33,447 nucleotides of DNA from a virus. Its lineage: Duplodnaviria > Heunggongvirae > Uroviricota > Caudoviricetes. The notes under the pieces were generated by a model, which made no database searches, was not told where the DNA came from, and was given only the letters and a program-made list of their open reading frames with translations. The stretch is taken from the IMG/VR virus record IMGVR_UViG_2734482556_000012, one strand, 5' to 3'. This document shows positions 8,501 to 33,074 of this stretch, one piece after another; position 1 is the stretch's first letter; the number at the start of each line of letters is the position of its first letter. The translations under genes were made by a program, and so were the position numbers.

Positions 8501-9333
8501 ACAGTTTAACGGCAAATAACCGTTTGTCGCAACAGCTGGTGGTCAGTGTCGCTGAACACCTGTTGTTACGGCATGAATGCAGATTACCAAATCACCTGGC
8601 TGTAAGTAACCACAGAGAACTTTACCTGACTGTGGGGGGCGAGTTGTGCAGGAACTTAACCGCTGGTTTCGTGACGGAAGAGGGCTTTATGTCCATGTTA
8701 TTCGTTGGGAGCCAGAAACACAGCGCGTTATCTATCTTCGCAAAGACTACCCGCATGAGTGCTTTAGTCCTTTGTGGAAATTCAGGCGTGATTTTGTTGA
8801 GTGTGAAGGACCACCAGCACATTGATTCTGCCATTCCGGGACGTTACACTGTTCAGGCACCTTATAAAGCGGGTGCCGGGATTGGCGTCCTGGAAATGTT
8901 ATCGGCGATATATGACGCGCCAGCGTCTTTTTTATCGTTTGCGTCTGTGCACACCCAAATTATGGTGGGCTGGACGGGGGCACCGAAAGGTGCGCCGGTT
9001 TCCGATAACGCCGGTTACGCCAACCCCGTTCAGTTCACCACCAGCGAAATTGGCGTTTCCGGTGGTGAAGGTAATTCACTGTTATCGGAGGCTGCCATCA
9101 TGGCTACTGTCCCAGCCCTCACTCGTCTGAATGATGAAGACTTACATAAACTCAGTTATGTAACAACTGCACTACGTGCTCTGCGCAAGGTAACTCTTTC
9201 GGATCCGCAGGCGCATCAGGTTCTGGTAGAAACCCTTCTTAACTTGCAGGCTGAACGTATTCGTCTGGCGGATAAGGCTAATTTTCATATTCACCGTCTC
9301 CTGAATATCAGCGGAGGGCATCGTCATGCTTAA
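8497..9333 (+). CDS. hypothetical protein; reading frame of the 5' third uncertain
   Basis: Only long ORF here, ATGA-coupled at both ends; a second protein-like frame is open over 8610-8825. Confidence 0.35.
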   Translation: MNSLTANNRLSQQLVVSVAEHLLLRHECRLPNHLAVSNHRELYLTVGGELCRNLTAGFVTEEGFMSMLFVGSQKHSALSIFAKTTRMSALVLCGNSGVILLSVKDHQHIDSAIPGRYTVQAPYKAGAGIGVLEMLSAIYDAPASFLSFASVHTQIMVGWTGAPKGAPVSDNAGYANPVQFTTSEIGVSGGEGNSLLSEAAIMATVPALTRLNDEDLHKLSYVTTALRALRKVTLSDPQAHQVLVETLLNLQAERIRLADKANFHIHRLLNISGGHRHA

Positions 9334-12249: not shown

Positions 12250-13059
12250 ATGAATAATCTGATGGTCATTGATGGTATTGAAGTTCGTCGTGATGCTTAT
12301 GGGCGTTACAGCCTGAACGATCTGCACAGGGCTGCCGGGGGAGAACAAAAAAACCGCCCGAAATACTGGCTCTCCAATAAGCAAACCTGTGAATTGATTG
12401 AACAACTTTTCACCGAGGGTGGAATTCCGCCTCTGGAACAAAATCAACCAGTTAGCGTCATTAATGGCGGAAATAACCAGGGGACGTATGTCTGCAAAGA
12501 ACTGGTGTATGCCTATGCAATGTGGATCAGCCCGTCATTCCATCTGAAGGTGATCCGTACTTTCGACATGGTAACCAGCGCACCGGAAAAATTATCCGGA
12601 CAGGCTGCTGACAAGATGCAGGCTGGCGTGATCCTGCTGGACTTTATGCGCCGGGAATTAAATCTGTCTAACTCATCAGTGCTTGGAGCCTGTCAGAAGC
12701 TTCAGGAGGCTGTTGGCTTACCGAATCTGGCACCGCGCTATGCCATTGATGCTCCTGCTGACGCGCCTGATGGCTCAAGTCGCCCCACGCTGTCGCTGAG
12801 TGCACTGCTGAAACAGTATGGTATCCGCCTGACGGCTAATCAGGCATATCACCAGATGGTGAAGCTAGGGATCGTTGAACAACGCGAACGATACAGCCGT
12901 ACCGCGATTAACAACATCAAAAAATTCTGGTCGCTGACGGCGAAAGGCTGCATGTTCGGCAAGAACATCACCAGTCCCGCAAATCCGCGCGAGACGCAGC
13001 CGCATTTCTTCGAATCCCGATTCCCTGAGCTGTTAAAGTTGCTCGATACCGTTCATTGA
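12250..13059 (+). CDS. KilA-N domain protein (antirepressor-like)
   Basis: N-terminal YSLNDLHRAAGG...RPKYWL...ELIEQL KilA-N signature; AAGAGGAG RBS. Confidence 0.6.
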   Translation: MNNLMVIDGIEVRRDAYGRYSLNDLHRAAGGEQKNRPKYWLSNKQTCELIEQLFTEGGIPPLEQNQPVSVINGGNNQGTYVCKELVYAYAMWISPSFHLKVIRTFDMVTSAPEKLSGQAADKMQAGVILLDFMRRELNLSNSSVLGACQKLQEAVGLPNLAPRYAIDAPADAPDGSSRPTLSLSALLKQYGIRLTANQAYHQMVKLGIVEQRERYSRTAINNIKKFWSLTAKGCMFGKNITSPANPRETQPHFFESRFPELLKLLDTVH

Positions 13060-13060
13060 G

Positions 13061-14056
13061 GTGACCGTGAGAGCACTACTGACCCCTGAAATTGCCCCGC
13101 GTATGGGGATCGTATTGTTCAGGCCAGGTTCAGAGCTGATGCCCCTGTTTATGCAGGGGCGTGTCCTGCTGGAGCCTGAGCCGGAACGTTATTCATCTTT
13201 CGCCAGTGGTGCCGTTCCGGCGGCATCACAACCGCTGGCGGATGATCCTGCCGTTCGGGCCGTGTTCCGCAATGAGGCAGTGATCCGTCGTGCTGGTGGC
13301 GTGGAATGTCTTGAAAGCTGGTTACTTCGTGAAAAAGGCTGCCAGTGGCCTCATTCCGACTGGCACAGCGAGAACATGACAACAATGCGACACGCGCCGG
13401 GCGCAATCCGTCTGTGCTGGCACTGCGATAACCAGCTGCGCGATCAGTTCACGGAACGGCTGGAATCAATGGCAACGGATAACTGTGCCCGCTGGGTGTT
13501 GTCTGTTGTGCGTCGGGATCTCGGTTTTGATGATAGTCACGTTGTGACAATGCCGGAACTGTGCTGGTGGCTGATTCGGAATGACCTGGCGGATGCCTTA
13601 CCGGAAAGTGCAGCCCGTAAGGCACTGAGATTACCGAAGCCTGTTGTGCCGTCTGTCACCCGGGAAAGTGACCTTGTGCCTTCGGTTCCTGCCACCAGCA
13701 TCATCCAGGATAAGGCGAAAAAGGTGCTGGCGCTGAAAGTGGATCCGGAGTCGCCGGAGTCTTTTATGTTACGCCCAAAACGTCGCCGCTGGGTTAATGA
13801 AAAGTACACGCGCTGGGTTAAGACACAGCCGTGTGCATGTTGTGGAAAGCCCGCTGATGATCCCCACCACCTGATAGGTCACGGTCAGGGTGGAATGGGA
13901 ACAAAAGCGCATGACCTTTTTGTGTTGCCTTTGTGCAGAAAGCATCACGACGAGCTGCATGCGGATACCGTGGCATTTGAAGAGAAGTATGGCTCCCAGC
14001 TGGAGCTGATATTTCGTTTTATCGATCGTGCGCTGGCAATTGGCGTGCTGGCCTGA
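13061..14056 (+). CDS. DUF968-like protein with C-terminal HNH-like Cys/His motif
   Basis: C-terminus CACCGKP..DDPHHL...[12 protein letters not shown] resembles a zinc-binding HNH-type motif; GTG start. Confidence 0.4.
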
Positions 14057-14073: not shown

Positions 14074-14439
14074 ATGCGTGATATTCAAATGGTTCTTGAA
14101 CGTTGGGGGGCATGGGTGGCAAATAATCACGAGGATGTCACTTGGTCGTCTATTGCTGCAGGATTTAAAGGACTAATCCCTTCAAAAGTAAAATCCCGCC
14201 CGCAATGTTGTGACGATGACGCGATGATCATTTGTGGATGCATGGCTCGCCTGAAAAAGAACAACAGCGATTTGCACGATTTATTAGTGGATTATTATGT
14301 AGGTGGTATGACGTTTATGGCGCTTGCCCGTAAACATGGGCGTTCTGATTGCTGGGTTGGGCGTTTATTGCAAAAGGCTGAAGGTGTAGTTGATGGCATG
14401 TTAATGATGTTAGAAATTGAGCTAGAGATGGATCGTTAG
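14074..14439 (+). CDS. antitermination protein Q-like (small Q family with Cys cluster)
   Basis: [14 protein letters not shown]...[16 protein letters not shown] resembles small prophage Q proteins (recalled); GGAG RBS 7 nt before ATG 14074; sits before the lysis genes. Confidence 0.6.
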
Positions 14440-14450
14440 AAGACCTCTTA

Positions 14451-14479
14451 TTGAGAGGGTAATTGAATCAGTTTAATGT
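14451..14479 (+). promoter_or_regulatory. candidate sigma-70 promoter (TTGAGA-17-TAATGT); possible late promoter pR'
   Basis: Hexamers at 14451-14456 and 14474-14479 just downstream of the Q stop. Confidence 0.3.
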
Positions 14480-14482
14480 GTG

Positions 14483-14512
14483 GGGAGTCGATTTATTCTC
14501 CCCATTTTATTT
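14483..14512 (+). terminator. rho-independent terminator-like hairpin (candidate tR')
   Basis: GGGGAG...CTCCCC stem (14483-14488 with 14499-14504) followed by ATTTTATTT. Confidence 0.5.
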
Positions 14513-14523
14513 AATTAATTTAC

Positions 14524-14970
14524 TTAAGGTTTTAATTCATCAAGACGTTGTTGGATAGTGTTTTTGCTTGCGTTGTCTGTTATAGCCATTTGTTGTACTT
14601 GCCCCATTGCCATTTGAGTTTCCATCCACATATCGGCCCACACTTTTGTATCGTTATTAACTTGAGCGATAGTAAATCTGACTTTTGATACCGGGGTTGT
14701 TGAATAGGCATTGCCGATTAACATTTGTCCAAAAACAGCAGACCCGCCTTCCAGTTCTTTACCACATATAACACTGCTGTTATCCGCGTTGTAAATTATC
14801 AACCCTCTACTATTGCAGTAATTCACAAGGGCATCTTTGACTTTATCTTTTGTCGTATTTTGATAAACCCCCTCAGGTTTTCCTGATTGAGTTTTCTTTA
14901 TCAATGGTACGGAAGAAGTACAACCTGAAATGATAGTTGCGCTAAGTAATAGTACAGTCATTTTATTCAT
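14524..14970 (-). CDS. predicted outer-membrane lipoprotein (moron)
   Basis: Signal peptide with lipobox ISGC (MNKMTVLLLSATIISG-C), Thr at +2; AT-rich gene antisense to the late operon. Confidence 0.6.
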   Translation of the reverse strand: MNKMTVLLLSATIISGCTSSVPLIKKTQSGKPEGVYQNTTKDKVKDALVNYCNSRGLIIYNADNSSVICGKELEGGSAVFGQMLIGNAYSTTPVSKVRFTIAQVNNDTKVWADMWMETQMAMGQVQQMAITDNASKNTIQQRLDELKP

Positions 14971-15093
14971 GTTTCTTATCCATTGTTAAGGGCATACCTA
15001 CACAATTATTTTTATTGGAGATGAATAATCAACCGTTTACAATCGTAAAAAATCAAATATGCTGTTAAGAGTGGTTACTTCGCCACACAACTT

Positions 15094-15118
15094 AAACCCG
15101 CCGCTGAGCGGTTTTTTT
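15094..15118 (+). terminator. rho-independent terminator-like hairpin
   Basis: Short GC stem (ACCCGC...GCGGT) followed by T7 at 15112-15118. Confidence 0.4.
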
Positions 15119-15216
15119 GTACCTGTAAACTTGGTGCAGTACAGTAAACACGCTGGTGGTCGTGAATACTGACTTTTTATCTTGCTGGCTTTTTAGACAA
15201 GAGTTATTGGTATGTC

Positions 15217-15444
15217 ATGTTAACCAGAAGGGAAAAAGACATGCTAAAACAGCAAGATATGACAGAAACCGCCGCCGCAGTCCTTCATTTCTTACCTGCT
15301 GACAAGTGGGTAACGCCACGCATGATGACGAGAACTACCGGAGTAAGCGAAGCCCGGTGCCAGTTAATACTGACTCAGTTAGTTCTGGCGGGTCTGGCGA
15401 AGGATAACGGTGGGTACGGGAATAAATTCAGACGCTGCCAGTAA
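15217..15444 (+). CDS. small wHTH protein, FaeA/PapI-like
   Basis: About 70 aa with AAVLHFL...TGVSEARCQLILTQLVLAGL, architecture like PapI/FaeA; alternative start ATG 15241 has a better RBS. Confidence 0.4.
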   Translation: MLTRREKDMLKQQDMTETAAAVLHFLPADKWVTPRMMTRTTGVSEARCQLILTQLVLAGLAKDNGGYGNKFRRCQ

Positions 15445-15594
15445 TGGCGGTTTCCTGCTGTGAAAATGGGCGGCTGGTGGGTGTTGGTAGCACCTGCCAG
15501 CCATTCGCTCATGCTTACTGGTCACAAGCGAACCACGGCCCACTGCTTTAGCGCAAAAGCAGAGTGAGCCTACCAGAGTTACGCTTACTGATCC

Positions 15595-16647
15595 ATGAAA
15601 AATACTGTAAAAATAAACAGTGTTGATTTAATCAACGCTGATTGCCTGCATTTTATTCAGTCCCTGCCTGATGATTCCATTGACCTGATTGTTACCGATC
15701 CGCCTTACTTCAAGGTGAAACCCAACGGTTGGGACAATCAGTGGAAAGGGGACGAAGATTACCTTAAGTGGCTGGACCACTGTCTGGCCCAGTTCTGGCG
15801 GGTGTTAAAACCTGCCGGAAGCCTTTACCTGTTCTGTGGGCATCGTCTGGCATCTGATATTGAGATCATGATGCGTGAACGTTTCAACGTGCTTAACCAT
15901 ATCATCTGGGCGAAGCCGTCCGGACGTTGGAATGGGTGTAATAAAGAAAGTCTGCGCGCATATTTTCCTGCCACAGAGCGCGTTCTGTTTGCTGAACATT
16001 ACCAGGGGCCATATCGCGGCAAAAGTGACGGCTATGCGGCAAAAGAAAGGGAACTCAAACAGCACATAATGGCACCGCTGATATCGTATTTCAGGGATGC
16101 TCGTGCCGAACTGGGTATAACGGCAAAACAAATTGCCGAAGCCACAGGTAAGAAAAATATGGTTTCCCACTGGTTTGGTGCCAGTCAGTGGCAGTTGCCG
16201 AATGAGGCTGACTATCGGAAGTTACAGGCACTGTTTTCCCGTATAGCGGCAGAGAAGTTTCAGGAACAACAACTGGAACAACCACACCACCAGCTGGTGG
16301 CATCTTATGATTCACTGAATCGCAAATATTCTGAATTGCTGGATGAGTTTAAATCTCTCCGGCGCTATTTCTCCGTATCAGTCTCCGTGCCTTATACCGA
16401 TGTCTGGATGCATAAACCCGTTCAGTTCTACCCGGGTAAACATCCGTGTGAGAAACCTGCGGATATGCTCCGGCAAATAATCAATGCCAGTAGTCGACCT
16501 GGTGATCTGGTTGCTGATTTTTTTATGGGATCCGGTTCCACAATAAAAGCAGCAATGGCGCTGGGGCGTCGGGCCTTAGGTGTTGAGCTTGAGTCAGAGC
16601 GGTTTAACCAGACAGTGAAAGAGATAAACGAGCTGGTGGGGAAATAA
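15595..16647 (+). CDS. beta-class DNA methyltransferase (N6A or N4C), orphan
   Basis: Motif IV VTDPPYF near the N-terminus and motif I FFMGSGST near the C-terminus, with a ~130-aa insert between; no adjacent restriction gene. Confidence 0.8.
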   Translation: MKNTVKINSVDLINADCLHFIQSLPDDSIDLIVTDPPYFKVKPNGWDNQWKGDEDYLKWLDHCLAQFWRVLKPAGSLYLFCGHRLASDIEIMMRERFNVLNHIIWAKPSGRWNGCNKESLRAYFPATERVLFAEHYQGPYRGKSDGYAAKERELKQHIMAPLISYFRDARAELGITAKQIAEATGKKNMVSHWFGASQWQLPNEADYRKLQALFSRIAAEKFQEQQLEQPHHQLVASYDSLNRKYSELLDEFKSLRRYFSVSVSVPYTDVWMHKPVQFYPGKHPCEKPADMLRQIINASSRPGDLVADFFMGSGSTIKAAMALGRRALGVELESERFNQTVKEINELVGK

Positions 16648-16653
16648 TCTGGT

Positions 16654-16676
16654 GGCCACGTAGGTGGCCTTTTTAT
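16654..16676 (+). terminator. rho-independent terminator after the MTase gene
   Basis: GGCCAC/GTGGCC stem with 4-nt loop, then CTTTTTATTT. Confidence 0.5.
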
Positions 16677-16713
16677 TTCCATTACACAGCACCCGCATCT
16701 GCGAGGTGGGGTT

Positions 16714-16929
16714 ATGAAATCCATGGATAAGTTAACAACGGGTGTCGCCTATGGCACCTCAGCAGGTAGTGCCGGGTACTGGTTTTTACAGTTGCTCGAT
16801 AAAGTCACGCCCTCACAGTGGGCGGCAATAGGTGTGCTGGGTAGTCTGGTATTTGGCTTGCTGACGTATCTGACAAACCTTTATTTCAAGATTAAAGAAG
16901 ATAAGCGTAAGGCTGCACGGGGAGAGTAA
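16714..16929 (+). CDS. S: class II holin, phage-21 S-type pinholin with dual start (MKSM)
   Basis: 71 aa, two TMDs, near-identical by eye to S21 ([17 protein letters not shown]...[10 protein letters not shown]...[18 protein letters not shown]); GAGGTGGGG RBS. Confidence 0.85.
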
Positions 16930-32381: not shown

Positions 32382-33074
32382 TGCAGAATATCCGACAGGA
32401 AACACTGAATGAATGCACCCGTGCGGAGCAGTCTGCCAGCGTGGTGCTCTGGGAAATCGATCTGACAGAGGTCGGCGGAGATCGTTATTTCTTCTGTAAT
32501 GAGCAGAACGAAAAAGGTGAACCAGTCACCTGGCAGGGGCGGCANNNNNNNNNNNNNNNNNNNNNNNNNNNNNNNNNNNNNNNNNNNNNNNNNNNNNNNN
32601 NNNNNNNNNNNNNNNNNNNNNNNNNNNNNNNNNNNNNNNNNNNNNNNNNNNNNNNNNNNNNNNNNNNNNNNNNNNNNNNNNNNNNNNNNNNNNNNNNNNN
32701 NNNNNNNNNNNNNNNNNNNNNNNNNNNNNNNNNNNNNNNNNNNNNNNNNNNNNNNNNNNNNNNNNNNNNNNNNNNNNNNNNNNNNNNNNNNNNNCAGCGA
32801 ACTGAGCGCGGTGAGCGCCTCTTTTGTACTGTCCACGCCGACGGAAACGGATGGCGCTGTTTTTCCGGGGCGCATCATGCTGGCCAACACCTGTACCTGG
32901 ACCTATCGCGGTGATGAGTGCGGTTATAGCGGTCCGGCTGTCGCGGATGAATATGACCAGCCGACGTCCGATATCACGAAAGATAAATGCAGTAAATGCC
33001 TGAGTGGCTGTAAGTTTCGCAATAATGTCGGCAACTTTGGCGGCTTCCTTTCCATTAACAAACTTTCGCAGTAA
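32381..33074 (+). CDS. L: minor tail protein L, interrupted by a 250-N assembly gap
   Basis: N-terminus (MQNIRQETLNECTRAEQSASVVLWEIDLTEVGG) and C-terminus (...KCSKCLSGCKFRNNVGNFGGFLSINKLSQ) match lambda L either side of the gap; span not a multiple of 3, so the gap size is nominal. Confidence 0.8.
32545..32794. other. assembly gap (250 N)
   Basis: Uninterrupted N run; technical, not biological. Confidence 0.98.

Follow-up and report, generated by a model that had tools for sequence, protein, structure and literature searches.

An antisense lipoprotein gene between Q and its cognate late promoter in a lambda-like Escherichia coli prophage: a probable moron with a possible role in superinfection exclusion

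The region next to the late antiterminator gene Q in the virus record IMGVR_UViG_2734482556_000012 (IMG/VR; Caudoviricetes), a stretch of 33,447 nucleotides that was analyzed in full and is called the window below, raises two related questions: where is the late promoter on which Q acts, and what is the role of the lipoprotein gene that lies beside Q on the opposite strand? An initial annotation, made from the sequence alone, had placed a candidate promoter and terminator (pR'-tR') directly after Q and had considered the lipoprotein a candidate exclusion or virulence factor. Many E. coli chromosomes match the region at 100% identity, and the inducible phage PhiR40_1 (PV340560), which is a lambda-like siphovirus, does so at 99.4%; a literature search for the PhiR phages found no paper. 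Sequence comparison shows the window to be a lambda-like E. coli prophage with a Q of the H-19B/QuuD type. The explanation proposed here is that the lipoprotein gene belongs to a moron inserted between Q and its promoter, that its product is an outer membrane lipoprotein, and that this lipoprotein acts in superinfection exclusion or envelope conversion. We assign to this explanation as a whole a probability of about one half. The features on which the argument is built are the following (coordinates in the window, strand, description).

14074..14439, + strand: late antiterminator gene Q, 121 amino acids (aa), QuuD/H-19B subtype of the Q21 family (PF06530)
14437..15034: inserted segment of about 600 bp, very probably a moron, between the shortened 3' end of Q and the onset of the pR' homology
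14444..14458, - strand: small hairpin CCUCU(U)/(G)AGAGG, followed by UCUUCU on the - strand (folds of both strands)
14480..14514, + strand: intrinsic-terminator-like hairpin with an 8-bp stem, a 10-nucleotide (nt) loop and a U-rich tail on the + strand only
14524..14970, - strand: lipoprotein gene, 148 aa, member of phrog_3152
15005..15032, - strand: predicted lipoprotein promoter, TTGATT (15032-15027)-16-AATAAT (15010-15005) (consensus scan)
15036..15063, + strand: putative late promoter pR', TTTACA (15036-41)-16-TATGCT (15058-63) (scan and homology)
15064..15099, + strand: conserved initial transcribed region (GTTAAGAGTGGTTACTTCGCCACACAACTTAAACCC), matching the "Q-utilization" stretch annotated in VT1-Sakai
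15100..15118, + strand: first terminator-like hairpin after pR', GCCGC-TGA-GCGGT followed by T7, weak

The Q amino acid sequence matched PF06530 with an E value of 2e-51 and shares 85% identity with QuuD of DLP12 and, across all 121 aa, 83% identity with the Q protein of H-19B. A distant match to the Q21 structure 6p18 was also found (E 7.5e-9). The nucleotide sequence between positions 15035 and 15120 is 80-85% identical to an element present in 358 phage records, including those of H-19B, VT1-Sakai, 434 and Perceval. This element is labeled in the VT1-Sakai record as a putative late promoter (TTTACG-16-TATCAT), a Q-utilization site and a rho-independent terminator for the pR' transcript, and the window version of the promoter, TTTACA-16-TATGCT, was among those listed by the promoter scan. 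In other phages the block is located directly after Q (H-19B and VT1-Sakai) or past an antisense nmpC gene (DLP12 and 434), and an alignment of the window, DLP12, 434 and VT1-Sakai indicated that the initial transcribed region (GTTAAGAGTGGTTAC...) is nearly invariant. The comparison with H-19B and VT1-Sakai (prophage Sp15) is the closest, since the promoter, the initial transcribed region and the first hairpin follow one another in the same order with about 80% identity; the differences are that the 144-aa Q of H-19B extends into pR' with no insert, and that the window lacks the StxS region of Sp15. Homology and gene order therefore point to 15036-15118, on the far side of the lipoprotein gene, as the late promoter cassette cognate to this Q. 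The other terminator that the initial annotation had placed after the AT-rich region corresponds to the hairpin and T7 stretch at 15100-15118.

An experimentally mapped relative agrees with this location. The pR' start of Sakai Sp15, a Shiga toxin (Stx) 1 phage, was mapped by differential RNA sequencing at 258 nt from tR' (PMC7547250). In the Sakai sequence, 257-258 nt separate a point 7 nt past TATCAT from the end of the GCCAGCC...GGCTGGC-T6 hairpin, and because the distances coincide the mapped start fits this promoter. The agreement rests on the distance, as the absolute start coordinate in PMC7547250 refers to an older version of the record. Phages with other types of Q share sequence with the window only from the hairpin at about 15100-15118 onward, as would be the case if Q moved together with its promoter as a single specificity unit. 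Neely and Friedman are said to have observed, in 1998, readthrough by H-19B's own Q. In the passage of PMC6266700 where Neely and Friedman 1998 is cited, lambda Q is described as unable to act on H-19B.

The segment that separates Q from its putative promoter is well delimited. The homology to H-19B and VT1-Sakai ends at the GATCG of Q codon 121 and restarts at GTTTAC (G15035), and the DNA in between has a GC content of 0.362 versus 0.502 for the window. Starting from Q, it consists of the small hairpin with its U-rich tail on the - strand, the large + strand terminator hairpin, the lipoprotein gene (-) and the predicted promoter (-). The insertion is accompanied by a difference in Q length: 121 aa in the window, 127 aa in DLP12 (L004:1457-1840) and 144 aa in H-19B (L022:780-1214), where the 23 extra C-terminal codons overlap the -35 hexamer of pR'. 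Both versions of Q that are followed by an insert, those of the window and DLP12, are devoid of this tail, which appears to be dispensable because PhiR40_1 was deposited as a propagated phage. A possible duplication of the 3' end of Q at 14990-15030 (GGAGATGAAT versus AGAGATGGAT) was considered and set aside because the similarity is too weak to make the call.

In the large hairpin, nucleotides 14480-14487 pair with 14498-14505 (8 bp, -13 kcal/mol, z = -3.1). The + strand continues with UUUUAUUUAAUUAAUUU, and the - strand with ACACAUUAAAC, which includes no U tract. We infer that this hairpin would stop non-antiterminated transcription leaving Q and so shield the lipoprotein gene from antisense transcription, while the small hairpin at 14444-14458 is a candidate weak terminator of the lipoprotein transcript. 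The predicted lipoprotein promoter, TTGATT-16-AATAAT, would leave a 5' untranslated region of about 27 nt. A better-scoring match, TTAACA-18-TAAAAT (14989-14960), was rejected because its -10 hexamer is inside the open reading frame (ORF) and cannot serve the lipoprotein start codon. The -35 hexamers of the predicted lipoprotein promoter (-) and of pR' (+) are back to back, 3 bp apart (15027-15041), and the two promoters may compete or be co-regulated.

The definition of a moron (Juhala/Hendrix; HK97 and HK022) was taken from PMC3594210. With regard to extra DNA absent from relatives, Q abuts pR' in H-19B and VT1-Sakai, and DLP12 and 434 hold nmpC at that position. Composition deviates, with GC contents of 0.36 for the insert and 0.38 for the ORF compared with 0.50 for the window, and the predicted hairpins at 14444-14458 and 14480-14505 provide terminators at the 3' end of the lipoprotein gene. 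This anatomy makes it very probable that the lipoprotein segment behaves as a moron of about 600 bp inserted between Q and pR'. The closest parallel is the nmpC/lc porin moron of DLP12, 434 and PA-2, which sits in the same slot, flanked by a QuuD-type Q and the pR' block, is oriented towards Q and antisense to the late operon, and also encodes an envelope protein; however, its product is a 16-strand porin instead of a lipoprotein, with no sequence relationship. Exclusion by Lc is attributed to replacement of the OmpC receptor. Transcription of nmpC in lysogens has been described for the prophage Perceval (PMC9928086).

The lipoprotein ORF encodes a 148-aa precursor with the N-terminus MNKMTVLLLSATIISGC|TSS; the mature protein would have 132 aa, a mass of 14.5 kDa and a pI of 8.5. 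It is identical to RefSeq WP_001038608.1, which is named "hypothetical protein". A PROSITE-type rule was used as the lipobox criterion, consisting of a positive n-region, an uncharged h-region and the motif [LVI][ASTVI][GAS]C. The protein passed it with K3 in the n-region, the h-region TVLLLSATII without D, E, R or K, the lipobox ISG|C17 and Thr at +2, as did 19 of 21 close and 55 of 63 distant relatives. Position +2 is occupied in the relatives by A, T, V, S, Q, G or M and never by Asp, the E. coli retention signal, whose absence predicts an outer membrane location. It is thus quite likely, from these sequence features, that the protein is a lipoprotein of the outer membrane. The initial annotation had described an AT-rich gene for a 148-aa lipoprotein with lipobox ISGC and Thr at +2, antisense to the late operon and probably directed to the outer membrane, and the ORF, its composition, the formal rule and the residue at +2 all agree with it. 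The GC content of the ORF is 0.38 and that at third codon positions 0.33, compared with 0.56 for the DUF968 gene two positions upstream, and only 3% of the 447-nt segments across the whole stretch are as GC-poor. In the alignment of relatives C17 is invariant and C52 and C69 are nearly so, which makes a Cys52-Cys69 disulfide probable; such a bond would imply an extracytoplasmic location. Also conserved are a T-x-SGKPEG segment just after the lipobox Cys, the motif GNAYSTTP and the strand KVWADMWxETQM, in which Trp, Asp, Trp, Glu and Gln alternate along one face. The AlphaFold model is a compact alpha/beta domain (predicted local distance difference test score 85).

Homology searches, proposed along with the initial annotation, placed the protein in a phage protein family listed with unknown function. 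The match to phrog_3152 is end to end (E 1.3e-104, residues 1-148 versus profile positions 1-148 of 148), and the Haemophilus homologue matches it as well (E 3e-39). Searches of Pfam, NCBIfam and PADLOC with the lipoprotein gave no match, Pfam applied to 63 diverse relatives returned nothing for this domain, and searches of PDB sequences with the single sequence or the 63-sequence profile returned only signal-peptide noise. Relatives from a word-indexed search numbered 31 and were confined to Enterobacterales; when the search was exhaustive, 521 clusters at 50% identity emerged, of which 224 lie below 1e-10. The relatives are named "hypothetical protein" or "lipoprotein" in their sources, apart from one automatic "VirB7" label for which the lipobox is the sole basis, and some distant ones, in other bacteria, carry PDZ, TPR/YfiO-like or SHOCT domains at the C-terminus. 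At the level of structure, the domain resembles helix-grip/TBP-like domains (BamC N-domain, Flpp3/DUF3568, DUF4468 and KA1) with 6-14% identity and Foldseek query-normalised TM-scores of at most 0.45; this fold is too widespread for a shared function or ancestry to be read from it. One common E. coli allele, P0179 (126 aa, 104 contigs), begins at MIKKTQSGKPEG and has neither signal peptide nor lipobox, being either a degraded copy or the result of a mis-called start.

The gene was found in 185 of 5426 complete E. coli genomes; the carriers include uropathogenic (UPEC) UTI89, avian pathogenic (APEC), enterotoxigenic (ETEC) and O157 strains as well as seawater, food and commensal isolates. At every E. 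coli locus examined it lies beside this Q allele with varying downstream modules. In UTI89 these are a methylase and lysis genes. In the O157:H7 NE1092-2 prophage (L026, locus 40644-46158) the Q-lipoprotein module heads a late region that resembles those of Stx phages and has no stx; it includes a helix-turn-helix protein, a tRNA-Ile, two tRNA-Arg, a TerB-family protein, DUF3927 and a SASA-family esterase. The same antisense placement between Q and pR' is found at 51 IMG/VR loci with at least 98% identity. Of the 25 IMG/VR loci at 40-70% identity, which represent homologues outside E. coli, 23 have the gene in the tail-tip gene cluster, oriented like the tail genes; one of the other two is in the nin region and one was unplaced. 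The 23 are distributed among the slots between K and I (9), between the tape-measure gene and M (6), just after the tape-measure gene (2), between M and L (2), between the tape-measure gene and J (3) and before the tape-measure gene (1), and some copies are within 30-100 bp of both neighbours. The profile scan of viral contigs used an alignment of the closer relatives.

The tail-tip placement was also found in Salmonella, Jejubacter, Morganella, Haemophilus, Photorhabdus, Xenorhabdus and Proteus genomes. The Salmonella copy has a GC content of 0.41 versus 0.55 and its own predicted terminator, ACCCGCC...GGCGGGT followed by T6, inside the tail operon. Further copies are located in a P1-like element, in the nin region of a Phytobacter prophage and in islands with MobA/MobL, primase or toxin-antitoxin genes, and there are relatives in Halomonas, Sphingosinicella and environmental metagenomes. 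The gene was present in two of 50,697 deposited phage genomes and in four plasmid records. Two copies look chromosomal, one beside dedA in an Enterobacterales metagenome-assembled genome (MAG, L010) and one near hut genes in Sphingosinicella (L020). No conserved partner gene was found, and the neighbours of about 472 aa in two metagenomic loci are unrelated to each other. These placements argue for an accessory cassette of mobile elements that stands alone and usually resides in the tail-tip module, the Q-side position in E. coli being exceptional. As a separate observation, toxin-antitoxin pairs (YafQ/RelE-like, Phd/Doc-like and PhdYeFM/PIN) lie no more than a few kb from homologues in several contexts that are unrelated to one another, at L008:7322-7603, L016:1245-1782, L010:5509-6167 and L027:1709-2375.

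We hypothesized that the lipoprotein is a superinfection-exclusion or envelope-conversion factor that is not receptor-specific, a proposal that we rate at somewhat short of even odds. According to this proposal, the lipoprotein gene would be expressed in the lysogen from its own promoter, and the product, after export and lipid modification at Cys17, would be directed to the outer membrane in the absence of Asp at +2. Its compact alpha/beta domain, probably stabilized by the Cys52-Cys69 disulfide and probably facing the periplasm, would bind a conserved host envelope component instead of a phage-specific receptor surface, and this binding would hinder adsorption or DNA entry by incoming siphoviruses. 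The placement of the viral homologues below 98% identity, 23 of 25 in the tail-tip module (tape measure|M, M|L and K|I), is consistent with exclusion because the exclusion genes Cor, Llp and HK97 gp15 occupy similar neighbourhoods. A Cor/Llp-style masking of the phage's own receptor was considered and is not supported, as there is no co-variation with the receptor-binding end of J. E. coli lipoprotein alleles that are about 99% identical accompany J C-terminal ends of 250 residues that are 63-83% identical, and where the lipoproteins are 60-85% identical, the C-terminal 250 aa of J are only 26-42% and the N-terminal parts 33-35% identical. The lipoprotein is more conserved than any tail protein that travels with it, which points to a conserved host envelope component or a conserved DNA-entry step as the target.

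Among characterized exclusion proteins, Cor (phi80, N15 and HK022) and Llp (T5) are small, accessory phage outer membrane lipoproteins, encoded near tail or host-recognition genes as are most of the homologues found here. In their phages, the genes for Cor and Llp map close to those for host recognition, and both proteins are about half the size of the mature 132-aa lipoprotein. The window protein differs from them in this length, in the lack of co-variation with J and in its linkage, in E. coli, to Q instead of J. The exclusion function of Cor, and that of HK97 gp15, are described in PMC3594210; gp15 is the product of a moron in the tail operon beside the tape-measure gene and blocks DNA entry without masking a receptor. 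Many of the homologues found here adjoin the tape-measure gene too, although gp15, a small inner membrane protein from the YebO family, is neither a lipoprotein nor related in sequence. A more specific proposal, which we regard as unlikely, is that the family constitutes a new and widespread class of Gram-negative exclusion lipoproteins, comparable to Ltp of Streptococcus phage TP-J34 or HK97 gp15 and not to Cor or Llp. Such proteins would be anchored in the outer membrane facing the periplasm and would bind an envelope component or the ejected tape-measure or tail-tip proteins of lambda-like siphoviruses, so that channel formation and DNA entry would be blocked without receptor masking. This class would explain the position among the tape-measure, M, L, K and I genes, the high conservation and the independence from J.

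Several results weigh against a role in exclusion or envelope conversion. The evidence for a promoter of the lipoprotein gene is a single consensus match (15032-15005, 9/12). The lipoprotein does not track the receptor-binding domain of J as Llp does. No family match to any named exclusion protein was obtained, nor any PADLOC hit: Cor and Llp gave no Pfam, PHROG or PADLOC family match and no fold match, Cor not having been compared directly, and Pfam gave no hit to Ltp-type exclusion lipoproteins (PF07553). Bor is also unrelated, with no PF06291 hit in Pfam at E values up to 0.1 and a BLASTP comparison with BorD that gave E 0.1 over 42 residues. The impression in the initial annotation that the protein does not resemble Bor, Cor or Llp stands within the limits of these comparisons. 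The literature search by RefSeq accessions and PHROG number found no paper naming the lipoprotein family, the PDZ, TPR and SHOCT fusions suggest a more general periplasmic binding module, and the P0179 allele may mean that the function was lost in some lineages.

The alternative that survives best, although we consider it rather unlikely, is the one to which these fusions point, namely that the domain is a general periplasmic module binding a ligand, glycan or protein in a housekeeping or stress role, with the mobile elements as mere carriers. The breadth of the family (521 clusters), the fusions in other bacteria, the resemblance of the fold to the domains of BamC, Flpp3 and DUF4468, and the conserved Trp/Asp/Glu face all fit this possibility; nonetheless, apart from the MAG L010 and Sphingosinicella L020 copies most contexts are a prophage, a P1-like element or a mobilisable island, and a conserved partner gene was not found. 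A function in the lytic cycle is quite doubtful. The lipoprotein would then be made late and mask the envelope, thereby sparing progeny from loss on debris as T5 Llp does in its second role, or would aid or regulate tail-tip or lysis events. Outside E. coli the position within the late tail operon, on the same strand and often 30-100 bp from the neighbours, means that the gene would be co-transcribed with the tail genes. However, in the window it is antisense to, and separated from, all late genes, most lambda-like phages lack it (only 2 of 50,697 deposited phage genomes carry it), and the AT-rich Salmonella copy, with its own terminator inside the tail operon, is a typical moron.

A role of the lipoprotein in virulence or serum resistance of the lysogen, by changing the surface towards complement or host cells as Bor/Iss or TraT do, is improbable. 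A prophage-borne, probably outer membrane lipoprotein in UPEC UTI89, APEC, ETEC and O157 strains invites this idea, and bor of lambda and DLP12 is likewise a lipoprotein moron in the late region, near the lysis genes and antisense to the late genes. But Bor/Iss is encoded after Rz, has 97 aa and shows no similarity, the carriers include seawater, food and commensal isolates, relatives exist in Halomonas, Sphingosinicella, Photorhabdus and environmental metagenomes, and the usual location is the tail-tip module. The layout of the initial annotation, with pR' (TTGAGA-17-TAATGT) right after Q, tR' at the GGGGAG/CTCCCC hairpin and the lipoprotein gene antisense and downstream of tR' within the late unit, is hardly tenable: although both motifs are present, pR' directly follows Q in H-19B and lambda, and the hairpin is real with a good U tail on the + strand, the promoter (14451-56 and 14474-79) matches the consensus at 8/12 positions with only 3/6 in its -10, is absent from the promoter scan list and is no better than chance (35 matches as good or better in the window), its -35 hexamer sits within the second, small hairpin (14444-14458), the large hairpin begins one base past its -10 so that the transcript would miss the 5' arm, quuD and H-19B Q are followed by nothing that corresponds to the sequence directly after Q here, and the cognate cassette is conserved at 15036-15118.

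The gene order on either side of the features already given is as follows.

12250-13059: KilA-N protein, first in the gene order around Q
13061-14056: DUF968/HNH protein, between the KilA-N gene and Q
15217-15444: 75-aa ORF, downstream of the pR' cassette
15595-16647: DNA methylase gene, stop at 16647
16654..16679, + strand: strong terminator GGCCAC-GTAG-GTGGCC followed by TTTTTATTT, between the methylase stop and the holin start
16714-16929: holin gene, followed by lysis, head and tail genes

The first hairpin after pR' has a folding energy of about -6 kcal/mol in the window versus -11 in Sp15. In Sp15 the first hairpin is read through, resulting in a 258-nt transcript that extends to the second hairpin and is the precursor of the small RNA StxS (PMC7547250). 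No homology to StxS was found downstream of pR' in the window beyond the first hairpin, and the next + strand terminator is the strong one in the gap between the methylase and holin genes, probably a second barrier for Q to override. The effective barrier before the lysis genes may be either of these two hairpins. The pR' promoter is constitutive in lambda and Stx phages (PMC7547250). If this one is too, lysogens are expected to contain a short RNA, about 48 nt long, that stops at the first hairpin. Leak-through past this weak hairpin could express the 75-aa ORF and the methylase in lysogens with the lysis genes staying off. The Rfam search of 14300-15700 gave nothing at threshold and one weak STnc130-like match (E 0.26) that was regarded as chance. 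Elsewhere in the window, isrK (8857-8933, 63.7 bits) and C4 antisense RNA (8958-9045, 82.8 bits), both on the + strand, scored above the Rfam gathering score. This pair, adjoining the replication/Rha region, is presumably a P1/P7-type small-RNA unit controlling an antirepressor. The gene for tail protein L contains a masked stretch, 249 N at 32546-32794, which accounts for a spurious GC minimum (0.235) in the composition calculation.

These results correct the regulatory map of this type of prophage: those of the QuuD/H-19B type with an insert after Q have their late promoter beyond the insert. A pR' displaced in this manner bears on the prediction of late-gene or toxin control in E. coli prophages. 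The lipoprotein domain, which is unnamed in curated libraries, is carried by prophages, a P1-like element and mobilisable islands in Enterobacterales, Pasteurellaceae, Halomonas and beyond. If it is not an exclusion factor, the gene is an ordinary moron. If it is, a new family would be added to the short list that includes Cor, Llp, gp15, SieA and Ltp, and the finding would have relevance for phage therapy directed at the UPEC, APEC and O157 carriers.

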